Source: a virus
Taxonomy: Duplodnaviria; Heunggongvirae; Uroviricota; Caudoviricetes
DNA length: 35,545 nucleotides
Direction: 5' to 3' (one strand)
Virus record (IMG/VR): IMGVR_UViG_2698536672_000015
Coordinates: 1-35,545 of that record
Shown: positions 1,113 to 10,483 of the stretch, piece by piece
Position numbering within the stretch: the first letter of the stretch is position 1
Layout of the letters: each line of letters opens with the position of its first letter
Translations under genes and position numbers: made by a program
Notes under the pieces: generated by a model
What the model was told of the DNA's origin: nothing
Seen by the model: only the letters and a program-made list of their open reading frames with translations
Databases searched by the model: none

Positions 1113-1504
1113 AAATTAATAACAAATAATGTGAGGGATAAGAATTGGGTTGAAAGGAAATGAATAATTAAAACAATATATTAAGTGTGCTTATACTCTT
1201 TTTCGAACTGGTGGCATTTGTTTAAATGCTATTTAAACTGCTTTTTCAGAGTTCAACTTACTGAGTTCCGTGTCGACTAATGTGAGTAAGATCAATCGCA
1301 TCCAACCTATGTTACTTGATGGAATCGATAACAATATTAATGAATATACAGATTCCGGGAAGGCTGGCTATGGGGGCAAATTATTCTCTTTCTGGCAACG
1401 GGTAAATAACAGTGACCATTTGTCGAGAAGCTGATACTGAGCTGAGGGATACTGTATATGTCTGGACTGTAATTGGATGAATTCTATTCAGGGCGGGTCA
1501 GGAC

Positions 1505-3122: not shown

Positions 3123-4313
3123 TCAAGTAGTGAAACCTCTTAATTTAATATTAGATGTTTTTTTACCTGAAGAGTTCCCATCATAGTCTTTCAGATATCG
3201 ACCATAGTGCCTGAAAAGCATCTCCGGCCCTTTATGCCCCATTTGAGCTGCAAGCCAAAACAGGTTTGCTCCTCGGCTGATATGGCTGGTGGCGAATGTA
3301 TGCCTAGTTTGATATGGGTTTCTGTAGCGAATACCTGCTTTTCGCAATGTTGGCACCCATGCTTTTTTCCTGATTGCATCAGCACTTGCCCAGGGCTTAT
3401 TGGTCTTTGGATCTTCAAAGACAGTAGCATCCTTCATGAATGTAAATGGCTTCTGATTTATCAGCGCCAACATTGCCTCTTCTGTCAGTTCAACTTTACG
3501 AGTACCTGCTTTTGTCTTTGTCCCTTTGATAACACCAACAACACTTGCGCTCTGGACATGGGCAGTTTTCCCAACAAAGTCGATATCACGCCATCGAAGG
3601 GCACATAATTCAGAACTACGCAGGCCTGTATGTATGGCGAACTGGAACAGATTCTCCCATTGTTTGTTTCCAGCGGCCGCTAGTAATGCATCAACTTCTG
3701 CTGGTGATAGCGGATCAACCACGTAGCTGCTTTCTGCTTCTGACTTATCACTTTGGTAGCGTGAAGCAGTTACTAACGATACGGGGTTAATTTGAAGTAC
3801 CCCATCGGTTACGGCTTCATCAAGTGCTGACCGCAGGAAAGATAACTGGTTGCGAATTGTTTTTAAGGTCGTTTTCTGGCTTTGAATCCACGCTTTCAGG
3901 GTTGCTGGTGTCAATTCACTTGCAGGGCAAATGTGAAGTGAGGCTAACGCACTACGGCATTTTTTATAACCACCAATCGTGGATGGTGAAAGTTTCCTCG
4001 TTTCGCAAATTTCAATATATTCGTCCAGGTACATTTTTACCGTTTTGCCTGCGGCAGCATTACCAAAAATTTTCAAACGAGCAGAACGGGGAAAATATTC
4101 CGCATAAATGAATGTTCCCCTTTCGATCTTATTATGAATTTCGCCGAGTGTACGCTCGGCGTATTTAATGTTCTTTGGAGTTACTTCCAGATTGGAAAGT
4201 GGCTCACGACATTTAACTCCTTTGTAGGTGAAAGTTATATTGATCGTTTCGCCCTGGCGGTGTTTCCTGATTGTTACGCCGCGCGGTAGTTTGAGCAGTT
4301 TTGTCTGGCCCAT
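3123..4313 (-). CDS. int: Phage integrase, tyrosine recombinase with N-terminal arm-binding domain, 396 aa
   Basis: Catalytic-domain motifs HTGLRSSEL and RHTFATS...HYGRY (R, HxxR, Y) in the translation; typical position at the prophage end, overlapping xis. Confidence 0.9.
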   Translation of the reverse strand: MGQTKLLKLPRGVTIRKHRQGETINITFTYKGVKCREPLSNLEVTPKNIKYAERTLGEIHNKIERGTFIYAEYFPRSARLKIFGNAAAGKTVKMYLDEYIEICETRKLSPSTIGGYKKCRSALASLHICPASELTPATLKAWIQSQKTTLKTIRNQLSFLRSALDEAVTDGVLQINPVSLVTASRYQSDKSEAESSYVVDPLSPAEVDALLAAAGNKQWENLFQFAIHTGLRSSELCALRWRDIDFVGKTAHVQSASVVGVIKGTKTKAGTRKVELTEEAMLALINQKPFTFMKDATVFEDPKTNKPWASADAIRKKAWVPTLRKAGIRYRNPYQTRHTFATSHISRGANLFWLAAQMGHKGPEMLFRHYGRYLKDYDGNSSGKKTSNIKLRGFTT

Positions 4314-6658: not shown

Positions 6659-7021
6659 TTAATGACCTGCTGCGCGTAGTTTTCCGTCAGGTTCACCGGC
6701 AAGAGTCAGTAATTGTCCCTGGTCTTCCTGCAGAATAGTCAGGCGACCACCGCGATTGACATACATCGGCGTTTCGGTGGTGTCTTCTTCGGAAATTTTC
6801 CCGCGGTTAGTCGGGCGAACATATGAGAGTTTGTGTTTGATTTTCACACGGTTCTCATCAAATGGTTCGATTTCCAGGTTGAGTGAGACCTTACCTTTGG
6901 TTTTCGTGTTCATCACACCGGAAGCGACTTCACTGAGAACTGCGCCGATTTTGGTTTCAAATACGCCGCCGTCCAGCTCCCCGATAAATGCCTGCACATC
7001 AGTACTGCGTTCGCTAGCCAT
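6659..7021 (-). CDS. YfdP-like phage protein, 120 aa
   Basis: Start placed at the internal ATG at 7021 (MASERS...) with a GAGGAG RBS; the longer 182-aa reading has an implausible Cys/Arg-rich N-terminus. Confidence 0.55.
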   Translation of the reverse strand: MASERSTDVQAFIGELDGGVFETKIGAVLSEVASGVMNTKTKGKVSLNLEIEPFDENRVKIKHKLSYVRPTNRGKISEEDTTETPMYVNRGGRLTILQEDQGQLLTLAGEPDGKLRAAGH

Positions 7022-7629
7022 TTTGCTGCTCCTCATCATATCGACCCTGCAAGGTCGGTTAGTTTCTCCACAAAACAGAGAAGAACACCTGCGGTGGCAG
7101 CCGCCCGGATGGATTGGGTTATGAGCCCGTCGTCCGGTGATGCTCTTCTCTGTTTTGTAAAAAGAGCGGTACCAGCCGGAAGTAAGTGTACAAACTGGTA
7201 CCGCCAAAGCAGTGGCTGTTGTGGTGACCGGTGCTGATCTCCGGCTTGCGGTTATTTCAGACTCTCACGGGCATTTAATTGCCCCGCCGAACAGCTCTTT
7301 TCCGCAATAGCTGCAATGTCTTTCGCGCATCAGCCTGCGCATTCACCACAACGCTGAGAGCACTTAGCCAGTTACGGCACCACACTTTGTCGCGGTTCCA
7401 TAAATGCCCTCATCGTTGCACCCTGGTCTCTTCCCAGGCGTCAAACCGGATCGCCACGCTGGTTAGGCGTCTTATCAGCATCATCATTGACTTGCACATT
7501 CCGGCTACCTGGTTTGTTTGCCCGAGCAAGGAGTGGATTGTCCCCTTTAACGTCCCCAGACCGCTAACGACGCATGTGCCATACGCCGTGTTACAACCAA
7601 ATTTTGTTAGTACCTTGTTTGTTGGTCTG

Positions 7630-7690
7630 GAAAGAAAGATAAAATGAAGTTGCGCACTATGCAAGTGTTTTTGTTGCGAGATATGCAATT
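7630..7690 (-). promoter_or_regulatory. Candidate leftward early promoter (pL-like) with two operator-like sites
   Basis: On the minus strand: -35 TTGCAT (7664-7659), 16-nt spacer, -10 TATCTT (7642-7637). Two 15-bp TTGC-N7-GCAA sites at 7650-7664 and 7672-7686 resemble sites in the cI/cro intergenic region. Confidence 0.4.
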
Positions 7691-7696
7691 TTATGG

Positions 7697-7723
7697 GAAA
7701 TGAAAAGCCACCTTCGGGTGGCT
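7697..7723 (-). terminator. Rho-independent terminator downstream of the cI gene
   Basis: AGCCACC-ttcg-GGTGGCT stem-loop, followed on the minus strand by TTTCATTTCC; 20 nt after the cI stop. Confidence 0.55.
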
Positions 7724-7743
7724 AATTGATGAGGAGGTAAGGG

Positions 7744-8436
7744 TTAATTGTGTCGCTTAAGGGTTTGTGACTGGCTGATTAAGACCTTTCCAAAGACCAT
7801 AAACCGGTGTTCATTTTCGCTGGTAATTCCCCATTCACGGTAAATCTGGTTATCAGAAATCACCAGTAGTTTGTCAGGTATCATTTGCAGTCGTTTAACA
7901 TAAATTTTATCATCAAAACCAAATACATAGATACCATCTCCATCAAACTGATTGATACTGACATCAACGAAGATGAGATCTCCTGGCTCAATGGTTGGAC
8001 ACATACTGTCCCCACGAACGTTGATAACTTTAATGTGATTGGCTGGTCGTCCGCCAAACATCGATACAGCATTATCAGTTCTGTATTCAATGGCATGAAT
8101 CACATCAATGACATCACCGCCCTGGATAAGGCCATTTCCCGCACTGGCACTGACATCCAGCATTTCAATACGGAATACATCCTTCACCTGCGCAACATCC
8201 TCACTAATACTGTTTTTACATACAGTATTACTTTTGAAGTCTGAGGTAAAGAGATCAGCAATATCAACACCTAAGCTCCTGGCAATATTACTCAGAGCTT
8301 GTTCAGTGAATTGTTTCTGCTTACCTGTTTCCAGGCGCGAAATATTCGCCGCATCCACTCCTATTGCTTCAGCGAGATCGGCGATTTTCATGTTCTTCGC
8401 CTGGCGAAGTTGTCTGACTCGATTTCCTATGTTCAT
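7744..8436 (-). CDS. cI: CI-like prophage repressor: N-terminal HTH plus C-terminal S24 LexA-like peptidase domain, 230 aa
   Basis: HTH segment IADLAEAIGVDAANISRLETG; Ala-Gly (SASAGNG) candidate cleavage site; catalytic Ser (GDSM) and Lys (VKRL); divergent from the cro-like gene. Confidence 0.85.
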   Translation of the reverse strand: MNIGNRVRQLRQAKNMKIADLAEAIGVDAANISRLETGKQKQFTEQALSNIARSLGVDIADLFTSDFKSNTVCKNSISEDVAQVKDVFRIEMLDVSASAGNGLIQGGDVIDVIHAIEYRTDNAVSMFGGRPANHIKVINVRGDSMCPTIEPGDLIFVDVSINQFDGDGIYVFGFDDKIYVKRLQMIPDKLLVISDNQIYREWGITSENEHRFMVFGKVLISQSQTLKRHN

Positions 8437-8533
8437 GCGTTTATTACATTTCTTTATTGCGCGTTAAGCAAATCAACTTGCGCAAAATATTTGCGTGAAA
8501 TAATATGCTCATCACGCAATATGTGGAGGTTAT
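8437..8533. promoter_or_regulatory. Immunity-region operator/promoter region between cI and cro
   Basis: Divergent intergenic region with repeated TTGCG(C/T)G half-sites at 8457, 8478 and 8492 and CACGCAA at 8514; TTGCGCGTTAAGCAA has TTGC-N7-GCAA symmetry; CGCAAA-ata-TTTGCG is a perfect inverted repeat. Confidence 0.55.
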
Positions 8534-8794
8534 ATGCAATCACCATTACGAAATGTGCGTAAGGCGCACGGGCTTACTTTGCAGCATGTTGCTGCGGGCG
8601 TTCAGGTTAATCCAGCAACGCTGAGTCGTATTGAGAGACTGGAACAAATTCCATCTATCGATCTTGCAGAGCGTCTGGCCAATTTTTTTAAGGGAGAAAT
8701 CAGCGAAATGCAGATTCTCTATCCTGCACGCTTTCAATCTAGTCAAAACCGGAATGAGTTAAAACCACAGGAACAGGAGGTAAGCCGTGGGTAA
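8534..8794 (+). CDS. cro: Cro-like HTH regulator (XRE family), 86 aa
   Basis: HTH segment LTLQHVAAGVQVNPATLSRIE; GGAGG RBS; divergent from cI. Confidence 0.6.
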   Translation: MQSPLRNVRKAHGLTLQHVAAGVQVNPATLSRIERLEQIPSIDLAERLANFFKGEISEMQILYPARFQSSQNRNELKPQEQEVSRG

Positions 8795-9338
8795 GCATCA
8801 CTGGAAAGTGGAAAAACAACCTGAGTGGTACGTGAAAGCTATCAGAAAAACTATCGCGGCATTGCCAGGTGGTTACGCTGAAGCTGCTGACTGGCTGGAT
8901 GTAACAGAGAACGCATTATTTAACCGCCTTCGTGCCGATGGCGATCAGTTTTTTCCGTTGGGATGGGCAATGGTTTTACAGCGTGCGGCTGGTACTCACC
9001 ACATTGCGGATGCTGTCGCACAGTCTGCTGGTGGGGTGTTTGTATCACTTCCAGAAATTGAGGAAGTAGAGAACGCTGATATCAACCAACGTCTACTGGA
9101 AGTTATTGAACAGATCGGGAGTTACTCAAAGCAGATTCGTTCGGCAATCGAAGACGGGGTAGTGGAGCCACATGAGCAGACAGCAATTAATGATGAGTTG
9201 TATCTGTCGATTTCGAAGCTCCAGGAACATGCGGCACTGGTCTACAAAATTTTCTGCGTTCCAGAAAAGAGTGACGCCCGCGAGTGTGCAGCTCCGGGCG
9301 TCGTGGCGTTTTGTGTCTGTGGAGAAACTAACGCATGA
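8787..9338 (+). CDS. Putative CII-analogue regulatory protein, possibly YdaT-like, 183 aa
   Basis: Position immediately after cro; family assignment is from memory of the cro-like/YdaT gene pairs in lambdoid prophages and is not verified. Confidence 0.35.
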   Translation: MGKHHWKVEKQPEWYVKAIRKTIAALPGGYAEAADWLDVTENALFNRLRADGDQFFPLGWAMVLQRAAGTHHIADAVAQSAGGVFVSLPEIEEVENADINQRLLEVIEQIGSYSKQIRSAIEDGVVEPHEQTAINDELYLSISKLQEHAALVYKIFCVPEKSDARECAAPGVVAFCVCGETNA

Positions 9339-9483
9339 ACAGTTTAACGGCAAATAACCGTTGGTCGCAACAGCTGGTGGTCCGCGTGGCTGAACACCTG
9401 TTGTTACGGCATGAATGCAGATTACCAAATCACCTGCCTGTAAGTAACCACAGAGAACTTTACCTGACTGTGGGGGGCGAGTT

Positions 9484-9663
9484 GTGCAGGAACTTAACCG
9501 CTGGTTTCGTGACGGAAGAGGACTTTATGTTCATGTTATTCGTTGGGAGCCAGAAACACAGCGCGTTATCTATCTTCGCAAAGACTACCCGCATGAGTGC
9601 TTTAGTCCTTTGTGGAAATTCAGGCGTGATTTTGTTGAGTGTGAAGGACCACCAGCACATTGA
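9484..9663 (+). CDS. Candidate small protein, 59 aa, GTG start (just below the 60-aa ORF-track cutoff)
   Basis: GTG at 9484 preceded by GGGGGG (spacer 6); translation VQELNRWFRDGRGLYVHVIRWEPETQRVIYLRKDYPHECFSPLWKFRRDFVECEGPPAH looks like a folded protein, unlike the overlapping frame of the long ORF. Confidence 0.35.
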   Translation: MQELNRWFRDGRGLYVHVIRWEPETQRVIYLRKDYPHECFSPLWKFRRDFVECEGPPAH

Positions 9664-9937
9664 TTCTGCCATTCCGGGACGTTACACTGTTCAGGCACCT
9701 TATAAAGCGGGTGCCGGGATTGGCGTCCTGGAATTGCATACGGCGACAATTGGCGCGTTAGCGTCTTTTTTGTTGCTACAACTCAGCTATACCCAAATTA
9801 TGGTGGGCTGGGTGGGGGCACCGAAAGGTGCGCCGGTTTCCGTATGCGCCGGTTACGCCAACCCTGCTCAGTTCACCACCAGCGAAATTGGCGTTTCCGG
9901 TGGTGGAAGTTATCCATTGCATACGGAGGCTGCCATC

Positions 9938-10483
9938 ATGGCTACGATCCCTGCCTTAGTACAACCTGAACTTTGCATTATTGCAGACAAAGTTGTTACT
10001 TCTTCTCTGGCTGTTGCTAGTTATTTCGGCAAACAACACAAAAATGTCATTCAAAAAATTGCGTCTCTTGAATGCTCTGCCGAATTTACTGAGCTGAATT
10101 TCCAGCTCAGTGAGTACATCGACGCATCAGGCCGCAAACTACCTTGCTATCAAATAACCCGCGACGGCTTTGCGTTTCTTGCTATGGGTTTCACGGGTAA
10201 ACGTGCTGCCCAGTTCAAAGAGGCATATATCAATGCCTTTAACCAGATGGAGAAACAGCTTTCAAAACCCTCTGTACCGAGCGACGTTGCACATAACGCC
10301 AGCATTCTCTATTCCTACATTTCATCAATTCATCAGGTCTGGCTGCAGCAGCTTTATCCTATGTTGGCAAAAGCCGAATCTCCGCTGGCTGTTAGCTTGT
10401 ATGACTATATTAATGATGCTTCGGCGCTGGCCTGCCTCATAAATTTGTCGCTGAACCCTTCAGAGGTAAGGGGGCGCAAATGA
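9938..10483 (+). CDS. Rha-family phage regulatory protein, 181 aa
   Basis: Rha-like domain begins directly at MATIPALVQPELCIIADKVVTSSLAVASYFGKQHKNV; a GGAGG RBS sits 8 nt upstream of the ATG at 9938. The ORF track extends this frame back to 9335, which I regard as non-genic. Confidence 0.65.
   Translation: MATIPALVQPELCIIADKVVTSSLAVASYFGKQHKNVIQKIASLECSAEFTELNFQLSEYIDASGRKLPCYQITRDGFAFLAMGFTGKRAAQFKEAYINAFNQMEKQLSKPSVPSDVAHNASILYSYISSIHQVWLQQLYPMLAKAESPLAVSLYDYINDASALACLINLSLNPSEVRGRK

Follow-up and report, generated by a model that had tools for sequence, protein, structure and literature searches.

The early-left leader of phage lambda contains nutL, an RNase III hairpin, and the N gene, and the substrates of RNase III are double-stranded RNAs of about 20 bp or more without interruption. 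Short RNAs made close to phage promoters, such as lambda 6S RNA from pR′ and StxS of Stx phages, are also known. In HK022, a lambdoid phage that does without an N protein, put RNAs located just 3′ of the early promoters act in cis; the nascent leader RNA binds RNA polymerase, and terminators are read through. Here we analyzed the early-left leader of a lambdoid prophage of the mEp460/cdtI/SfV type (IMG/VR record IMGVR_UViG_2698536672_000015, positions 1–35,545; the whole stretch is hereafter called the window), in which the gap of about 600 nt between the cI-like repressor gene and yfdP is transcribed leftward. A first-pass annotation of positions 7022–7696 had regarded this interval as an apparently gene-free leader, possibly with an HK022 put-like antiterminator or a small RNA (sRNA).

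N-less lambdoid phages of the yfdP/yfdQ/yfdR type are common, and 3026 of 5426 complete Escherichia coli genomes match part of this region. The control of their early-left operon is an acknowledged gap, and the LLS phage paper (Genome Research 2025) only speculates on put. From an mEp460-like prophage of E. coli K1 RS218, Sun et al. 2020 (Front Microbiol 11:574833; PMC7719688) reported the 193-nt sRNA-17 on the basis of 5′/3′ rapid amplification of cDNA ends (RACE) and Northern analysis. In that paper, sRNA-17 is a trans-acting sRNA restricted to a lineage and controlled by ArcA, for which an Mfold structure and "no Rfam homolog" are given; a conserved fold, a wide family, a link to tRNA genes, and the pL-leader context are not described there. 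We describe the anatomy of the leader, the helices and loop–loop pairing of its RNA, the family to which this RNA belongs, and the absence of a put RNA, and take the RNA ends and the expression from the literature. On balance, the early-left operon probably has this interval as its untranslated leader, which resembles a portion of a phage tRNA operon in its layout and would both make a structured sRNA and attenuate the left operon.

A cloverleaf-like RNA forms the core of sRNA-17

The primers and probe in Table S2 of PMC7719688 were mapped to the window. The full-length primers matched 7160–7191 (one mismatch) and 7321–7353 (no mismatch), and the Northern probe corresponded to the plus-strand sequence of 7242–7291. 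Because the probe is plus-strand, sRNA-17 is a minus-strand RNA running from its 5′ end at 7353 to its 3′ end at 7160, and this is the strand transcribed from the leftward promoter described below. With zero to one mismatch in primers and probe, the locus and the RNA are the same as in the mEp460-like prophage of that study; the sRNA suggested as an alternative in the first-pass annotation thus exists at 7160–7353 and had already been published. The fragment used as the "promoter" in PMC7719688 maps to 7353–7602, and in the deletion mutant 7210–7327 was swapped for a resistance cassette. yfdP was up 95-fold in this mutant, which is probably a cis effect because the cassette was placed beside yfdP.

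The core of sRNA-17 is a 135-nt structured RNA, which we call module B (7218–7352, minus strand; 80.3 bits and E 2e-20 with model R2). It was the only copy that model R2 found in the window, and all family motifs were present in its sequence. The closing helix P1 has 9 bp (7352–7344 with 7226–7218), of which the outer 7 bp vary freely. An AAU linker joins P1 to P2 (5 bp, 7340–7336 with 7329–7325), which is capped by loop L2 (GGCUGA, 7335–7330). Then comes a variable arm (7324–7246), which ranges from 6 to about 230 nt in the family, and P4 (5 bp, 7245–7241 with 7231–7227), which bears loop L4 (AGAUCAGCA, 7240–7232) and abuts the 3′ strand of P1. GCUGA of L2 is complementary to UCAGC of L4. P1, P2, and P4 were all given by the minimum-energy fold. 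The hairpin GCGCA-tcagcc-TGCGC (7325–7340) noticed in the first-pass annotation is real and corresponds to helix P2.

Two conserved arms with a variable middle were first seen on aligning RCS47, IME207, phiEt88, HK620, SopranoGao, swi2, and Magnus. Exact-word scans of IMG/VR with each arm gave at least 120 loci per arm, and 137 distinct complete members, the smallest of 62 nt in total, were extracted among the matches listed. A degenerate scan with GGTGAATGNNNNNGGCTGAT was discarded, as it returned chance matches only and exact 21-mers were needed. In an alignment of 34 sequences with 24 pairs, 96.8% of the cells were paired versus 87.3% in shuffles (0 of 500 as high), and sliding the partner by 1–3 columns left a pairing of only 23–52%. 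Two-sided changes occurred at 12 pairs (7 of 9 in P1, 2 of 5 in P2, and 3 of 5 in P4). Among the 137 distinct members there were 46 different P1 sequences, self-complementary at a fixed position.

The contact between the loops was examined by scanning IMG/VR for loop variants, which were rare (9 and 11 loci versus more than 120 for the canonical loop). Where L2 was GGCCGA, five lineages had a matching A-to-G change in L4 (UCGGC in four and ACGGC in L565), and one lineage was uncompensated. Where L2 was GGUUGA, L4 was UCAAC in one lineage and a G·U pair was kept in two, and three GGAUGA variants of L2 were uncompensated. UCGGC was found in none of the 127 members with canonical L2. These compensating loop changes support a kissing L2–L4 interaction. 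The covariation seen in the alignments supports all helices of module B as well as the loop–loop pairing. The modeled topology is a cloverleaf-like four-way junction, in which an acceptor-like helix would be stacked on a T-like arm and a D-like arm would meet it at an "elbow". Conservation of RNA structure in related phages had been named in the first-pass annotation as a point to check, and a conserved fold with covariation support was found.

Distribution of the RNA family

The conserved 21-mer was present in at least 120 species-representative genomes from Enterobacterales, Pseudomonas, Halomonas, Xanthomonadales, many Betaproteobacteria, some Alphaproteobacteria, and a few metagenome-assembled genomes assigned to other phyla. 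Of 256 instances, 37 had a tRNA gene no more than 500 nt away, compared with 11.4 ± 2.6 for random positions, and each of the 37 shared the strand of the tRNA. Contexts were classified by clustering of neighboring ORFs. A CI-like repressor gene was upstream on the same strand at 76 loci and yfdP downstream at 33 loci; an N-like gene (phrog_271, E 2e-30) followed after about 124 nt at 14–19 loci; a Q-like gene was upstream at 17 loci, and an endolysin gene was downstream at 22 loci. The family is thus found mainly in lambdoid pL and pR′ leaders and in tRNA arrays.

In HK620 (L011, 1016–1109, plus strand), the element is in the late leader between the annotated qut and the terminator tQ, and its position there means that the short pR′ transcript of HK620 should contain it. 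The arrangement resembles that of lambda 6S RNA and StxS in placing a structured RNA between a strong phage promoter and the first terminator. In contrast, the sequence and fold are different, and module B is a mobile module common to unrelated phages.

P1 (L005, AF234172) carries three tandem copies on the plus strand at 75–132, 308–409, and 569–692 (16, 70, and 29 bits with model R2). They are downstream of tRNA-Asn and tRNA-Thr, on the strand opposite to the annotated plp ("putative lipoprotein") and upl, and RCS47 shows this arrangement too. In an N-encoding relative (L187), a boxB-like hairpin AGGCU-GAAA-AGCCU (around 1130–1150, plus strand) is located between pL and the element, 25 nt upstream of the latter, and the N-like gene begins about 25 nt after the element. 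Since this locus has a separate boxB-like hairpin, we rejected the element as the nut site itself. Two opposed copies in L105 were likewise rejected as a nutL/nutR pair; the region between them consists of an IS3-type transposase and lysis genes and is not an immunity region.

Comparison with tRNAs and known RNA families

The likeness of module B to tRNAs and tRNA-like RNAs (the tRNA-like domain of tmRNA, the bacterial Y RNA YrlA, and mascRNA) lies in its four-way-junction topology. The closing helix abuts the 3′ hairpin without a spacer, like acceptor and T stems, and is connected to the 5′ hairpin by a linker of 3 nt; the loops of the two hairpins contact each other as an elbow, the element occupies tRNA slots in phage arrays, and its 5′ end lies at the base of the closing helix. 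In sRNA-17, the 5′ RACE end (7353) is 1 nt upstream of P1. On the other hand, the elbow is a 5-bp Watson–Crick kissing complex and not a T-loop/D-loop contact, the closing helix has 9 bp and not 7, and there is no CCA at a fixed position. The Rfam models of tRNA, tmRNA, and YrlA and the program ARAGORN all failed to detect the element.

CCA occurred within four offsets after P1 in 45 of 137 members against about 11 expected, its position not being fixed. Across the family, the 10 nt that follow P1 are rich in C and A and poor in G, and a subset has (A/G)CCAAA, like the encoded 3′ end of a tRNA. In some members (L209, L134, L179, and L192), the variable arm holds sequences like tRNA D and T arms. 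In L209 (element at 3951–4050), positions 5–66 of the Rfam tRNA model matched at 3978–4026, nested inside the element.

A search of 6900–7800 against Rfam 15 gave no credible hit at E ≤ 10, and the module B family is absent from Rfam 15; the element from 13 diverse loci gave no hit on itself at the gathering threshold either. In a literature search that left subscription journals mostly uncovered, no description of the family was found by motif strings or as a tRNA-like phage RNA. A preprint on the Pas sRNA was set aside, as it concerns other prophage sRNAs. The M3 RNA of phi80, an RNA of about 60 nt cleaved by RNase P, was also dropped as a possible member; as judged from annotation only, the phi80 record gives M3 as the oop homologue, between cII and O.

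Terminator and long hairpin upstream of yfdP

An intrinsic terminator follows module B at 7158–7205 on the minus strand, with a 13-bp stem (7205–7165) and UCUUUUU (7164–7158); it folds with −21.2 kcal/mol (z −4.4). With a loop of more than 8 nt, it escaped our terminator scan. The published 3′ RACE end of sRNA-17 (7160) falls in its U tract. In the RNA-seq data of PMC7719688 for the wild-type lysogen, sRNA-17 was detectable, and yfdP, immediately downstream, had about 0.5 reads. Since sRNA-17 is expressed while yfdP is nearly silent, transcripts bearing the element pass the adjacent terminator inefficiently.

Between the terminator and the ribosome-binding site of yfdP is a large hairpin (7065–7163, minus strand) with an uninterrupted 25-bp stem. 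It folds with −51.2 kcal/mol (z −8.1; none of 200 shuffles folded as well) and is conserved 5′ of yfdP in Klebsiella and Salmonella phages. The predicted stem would give double-stranded RNA long enough for RNase III and is a possible cleavage site of this enzyme. As in the lambda pL leader, a long untranslated leader extends from pL to the first gene, and a long perfect hairpin is located just before the ribosome-binding site; in L187, moreover, the element sits between the boxB-like hairpin and N. The window differs from lambda in having neither an N gene nor a boxB pentaloop hairpin, and its strong terminator is located before the first gene, not after it.

Promoter and tRNA-operon-like layout of the leader

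The pL-like promoter (7636–7664, minus strand) consists of −35 TTGCAT (7664–7659), a 17-nt spacer, and −10 TATCTT (7641–7636). It matches the consensus weakly (7 of 12), and a generic promoter scan made no call there. Relatives with another immunity type have a near-consensus promoter, TTGACA...CATAAT, at the same position, and homology between them and the window restarts about 35–40 nt 3′ of the promoter. This shared position and the resumed homology support a promoter at the pL-like position with a start near 7629.

The operator-like site TTGCGCACTATGCAA (7650–7664), an exact match to TTGC-N7-GCAA, overlaps the −35 element, and a distal site, TTGCGAGATATGCAA (7674–7688), has the same form. 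The only exact TTGC-N7-GCAA sites in the 35.5-kb window are these two and 8457–8471, and all three flank the cI-like gene. Their number is ordinary (three were reached by 18% of shuffles), but their clustering is unusual. The leftward promoter and two overlapping operator-like sites of the first-pass annotation are therefore borne out by the sequence and by the promoter of the relatives. Just 5′ of the promoter, a terminator-like hairpin (7706–7723, minus strand; 7-bp stem with five G–C pairs, then a T run) closes the cI-like gene.

The leader as a whole is a mosaic of mobile noncoding modules. Module A (7354–7602, minus strand) is a conserved noncoding segment in which near-invariant blocks alternate with variable hairpins. 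It is about 80% identical to a segment of P1, located directly after tRNA-Ile and before ban, and to a segment of phiV10-like phages that ends at tRNA-Arg; the upstream 250 nt of the leader thus flank true tRNAs in these phages. In phiV10-like phages, the tRNA-Arg follows the leader CTAAGTGCTCTCAGCGTT, which is identical to the leader before the sRNA core in the window. A hairpin in module A, GCCUGG-GAAGAGA-CCAGGG (7421–7439, minus strand), shows two-sided changes that preserve the pairing at three of its five pairs (columns 172/188, 174/186, and 175/185) among the window, phiV10, and P1 types. A long-range pairing of module A given by RNAalifold rests on invariant columns. Module A as a diverged copy of module B was rejected; model R2 had no match in 7353–7640.

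The short leader immediately 5′ of the RNA element contains the boxA-like sequence UGCUCUCA (7355–7362, minus strand), and an identical copy of this leader precedes tRNA-Arg in phiV10-like phages. The boxA consensus is CGCUCUUA or UGCUCUUUAACA, and relatives have UGCUCUUUCC or CGCUCUUUUU; the likeness to boxA is a resemblance only. [TC]GCTCT[TC] was found within 16 nt upstream of 33 of 137 family members. A boxB hairpin with a GNRA-like pentaloop was not found in 7022–7640.

Coding potential of the leader

In an E. coli chromosome that is 100% identical, no gene is annotated by PGAP between yfdP and the repressor gene. The ORFs of the leader had no Pfam match above the cut-off, and their sole PHROG match was a plus-strand fragment of 47 aa, assigned to a family of unknown function whose ORFs are annotated antisense to yfdP. 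Reading frames were not conserved among the copies of the leader in the window, P1, and phiV10-like phages. PHROGs revealed no N-like protein in the left operon (yfdP, yfdQ, yfdR, two small ORFs, xis, and int). These results confirm that the interval is a real noncoding leader with no credible gene before yfdP, and both the gene-free leader and the lack of an N-like gene held up from the first-pass annotation.

The matched family, phrog_3651, comprises plus-strand ORFs that run antisense to yfdP and through the large hairpin, at 7094–7237 in the window and 2434–2889 in L003 (orf40 of cdtI). That just the 47-aa remnant is open in the window suggests phrog_3651 to be an annotation artefact. Judging from the RNA family, some annotated phage ORFs, such as orf40 of cdtI and plp/upl of P1, may overlap, or be mistaken for, RNA genes; plp and upl may also be spurious.

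Search for a put-type antiterminator

We built a covariance model (R1) from eight put RNAs, namely putL and putR of HK022 and put-like sequences of UPF_BP1, phiEt88, CobraSix, S9-5, HK639, and PdC23. R1 gave 96.2 bits for HK022 putL and 49.2 bits for putR, whereas its best match in the leader had 4.9 bits (E 8.1), and no put RNA was found. At 7590–7566, the leader resembles putL stem I, with the helix CGGCG/CGUCG and CAUG common to both. However, the stem II signature of put (UCAGGAUGA...CAAUG) was not found in the leader, nor was the two-stem sequence and structure (GAACGGCGCG...GUCGG...GGCGGGUUCAGGAUGAACGGCAAUG). As to location, the conserved leader begins about 35 nt after pL, as a put RNA might, and the left operon has no N-like PHROG match. 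Model R2 found no second copy of the RNA element on the pR side, and blastn with putL retrieved put only from other phage groups and from no phage of the mEp460, cdtI, or SfV type. The HK022 put-like element put forward in the first-pass annotation is therefore not supported. HK022 and HK639 put RNAs and this leader are alike as noncoding RNA just 3′ of early promoters in an N-less lambdoid phage, but transcripts here stop at the next terminator. Erwinia phage phiEt88 (L010, L431) has a genuine putL (94% identical to that of HK022) in its early-left leader and a cloverleaf-like element between Q and tRNA-Phe. Because phiEt88 carries both, put and the cloverleaf-like element are not alternatives.

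Neighboring features of the window

The cI-like repressor gene occupies 7744–8436 (minus strand) and is accompanied by cro-like (8534–8794) and cII-like (8787–9338) genes. The early-left genes (yfdP, yfdQ, yfdR, two small ORFs, xis, and int) are all on the minus strand; yfdP, the first, is at 6659–7021 according to PGAP (phrog_204, E 1e-49), and its Shine–Dalgarno sequence GAGGAG (7034–7029) and ATG (7021–7019) are apparent from the sequence.

On the plus strand, isrK (9695–9771, 61 bits) and the C4 antisense RNA (9796–9883, 81 bits) were found above the Rfam gathering score. The region 9695–9883 is a P1/P7 immI-type or Gifsy-type antirepressor control module in a lambdoid prophage. Both RNAs are located inside the ORF 9335–10483, which PGAP assigns to a Rha-family regulator; its start may therefore be over-extended.

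Discussion

The reading that we consider most probable is that of an untranslated leader, laid out like part of a phage tRNA operon, which yields sRNA-17 and attenuates the left operon. When the repressor leaves the two operators, leftward transcription would start near 7629 and cross module A (7602–7354), a spacer that adjoins real tRNA genes in other phages. It would then enter the short leader and the 135-nt cloverleaf-like RNA (7352–7218), at the position of tRNA-Arg in phiV10-like phages. Most polymerases would be halted at the terminator (7205–7158), and trimming of the terminated RNA at the base of P1 would yield the stable 193-nt sRNA-17. Read-through transcripts, the minority, would carry the 25-bp hairpin 5′ of the ribosome-binding site of yfdP, a hairpin that RNase III may cleave as in the N leader of lambda, and would express yfdP, yfdQ, yfdR, xis, and int. 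We infer that sRNA-17 is cut from the pL transcript by tRNA-processing enzymes, that the terminator acts in attenuation, and that the long hairpin is cleaved by RNase III.

Several observations weigh against this reading. ARAGORN found no tRNA gene, the Rfam tRNA model had no hit at E ≤ 10, and module B lacks the T-loop and D-loop sequences of tRNAs. Proximity to a tRNA is seen for just 14% of the family, and a terminator lies no more than 51 nt away in just 9 of 137 members. The folding z-scores of module A were not significant, and most of its predicted pairs are invariant. In module B, the instance picker demanded pairing and inflated the percentage of paired cells; the 46 self-complementary P1 versions at a fixed position cannot stem from this requirement. 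The RACE of PMC7719688 does not distinguish primary 5′ ends from processed ones. Detection of sRNA-17 was in lysogenic cells, in which repression of the leftward promoter is expected, and the authors propose a separate ArcA-controlled promoter within the module A region, so sRNA-17 may not derive mainly from pL.

These last points lead to the alternative that sRNA-17 comes from an independent gene for a trans-acting sRNA, which has a promoter of its own and is repressed by ArcA, and that its place in the leader is incidental. We regard this as possible, though clearly the less favored option, and it partly overlaps with our own explanation. The Northern analysis, the RACE ends, the growth-phase dependence, and the ArcA gel shift of PMC7719688 speak for it, as does expression in a lysogen. 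However, the gel shift needed 20–80 µM ArcA, the supposed promoter fragment is a module of RNA type, located after a tRNA in P1 and before one in phiV10-like phages, and no sigma-70-like site was called by our scan in 7353–7602. The rise of yfdP is expected as a neighbor effect of the cassette, and the same element occurs in promoter-proximal leaders of many unrelated phages. Unlikely in our view is a new antitermination element not homologous to put, in which module B, or module A with the boxA-like leader, would act on the elongation complex, either directly or together with Nus factors as in rrn operons, and shield untranslated RNA such as leaders and tRNA arrays from Rho or intrinsic terminators. 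The family does occur in exactly the two lambdoid leaders with antitermination and in untranslated tRNA arrays, 33 of 137 members are preceded by a (U/C)GCUCU(U/C) boxA-like motif, and loops so extremely conserved from one proteobacterial class to another suggest a partner in the host that is conserved as well. Yet sRNA-17 ends at the adjacent terminator with yfdP essentially silent, the boxA-like motif is missing in 76% of members and off-consensus in the window, the N-encoding relative has its own boxB-like hairpin 5′ of the element, and Q already antiterminates in HK620 and related phages.

The remaining alternatives have little to recommend them. A put-type cis antiterminator is very improbable; the lack of an N-like gene, the leader start about 35 nt past the promoter, much like putL, the stem I helix with CAUG at 7590–7566, and the speculation in the LLS phage paper favor it, but the R1 score of the leader is far from those of putL and putR, stem II and blastn matches are absent, and sRNA-17 ends at the terminator with yfdP nearly silent. 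About equally remote is a DNA-level element, a miniature transposon or recombination cassette whose conserved arms would be terminal inverted repeats around variable cargo. The arms are partly inverted repeats of each other, and the middle is highly variable in length and content and found in very many contexts; against this, the outermost 7 bp are variable yet complementary (46 versions, 7 of 9 pairs compensated), which is the opposite of transposon ends, the orientation follows that of neighboring tRNAs in 37 of 37 cases, compensation is between the loops and not the arm ends, and the RNA was detected (PMC7719688). An unannotated small protein gene in the leader, N-like or other, is the least to be expected. 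Its candidates would be a minus-strand ORF of 92 aa (7410–7688), an ORF of 25 aa with a CxxC pair (7265–7342), and the plus-strand ORFs annotated in mEp460 and cdtI. None has a Pfam match above the cut-off, an informative PHROG match, or a PGAP call; the start of the 92-aa ORF would fall inside the promoter, and the 25-aa ORF sits in the variable arm and is missing from other family members. In addition, conserved blocks shift frame between P1 and the window, and the lengths of the variable segments differ by non-multiples of three.

Returning to the tRNA-operon-like leader, sRNA-17 itself was already known, and what is new is the widespread RNA family and the architecture around it. The "empty leader" becomes a defined succession of promoter, tRNA-operon-like spacer, structured sRNA, terminator, long hairpin, and first gene; the put hypothesis is removed for the N-less yfdP-type phage group; and a published "strain-specific virulence sRNA" is recast as one member of a large RNA family. 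The loops of this family show almost no variation among Escherichia, Pseudomonas, Massilia, and Rhizobium, and such conservation usually reflects contact with core machinery. On these sequence comparisons, an elbow that hardly varies between bacterial classes points to a host partner that is itself conserved. As to function, our guess is that the kissing-loop elbow engages conserved host machinery that handles tRNAs or transcription, with the variable arm providing specificity.

We put forward, as a tentative idea that may well prove wrong, that sRNA-17 has as its core a member of a very widespread and so far undescribed class of phage RNAs, in which a tRNA-shaped scaffold with a near-invariant Watson–Crick kissing elbow across Alpha-, Beta-, and Gammaproteobacteria engages a universal host machine and a hypervariable arm carries specificity or cargo. 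If so, candidates for the host machine would be RNase P or other tRNA enzymes, the ribosome, tRNA-targeting defence nucleases, and RNA polymerase, and phages would place this scaffold in their earliest (pL) and constitutive (pR′) leaders and in their tRNA arrays.

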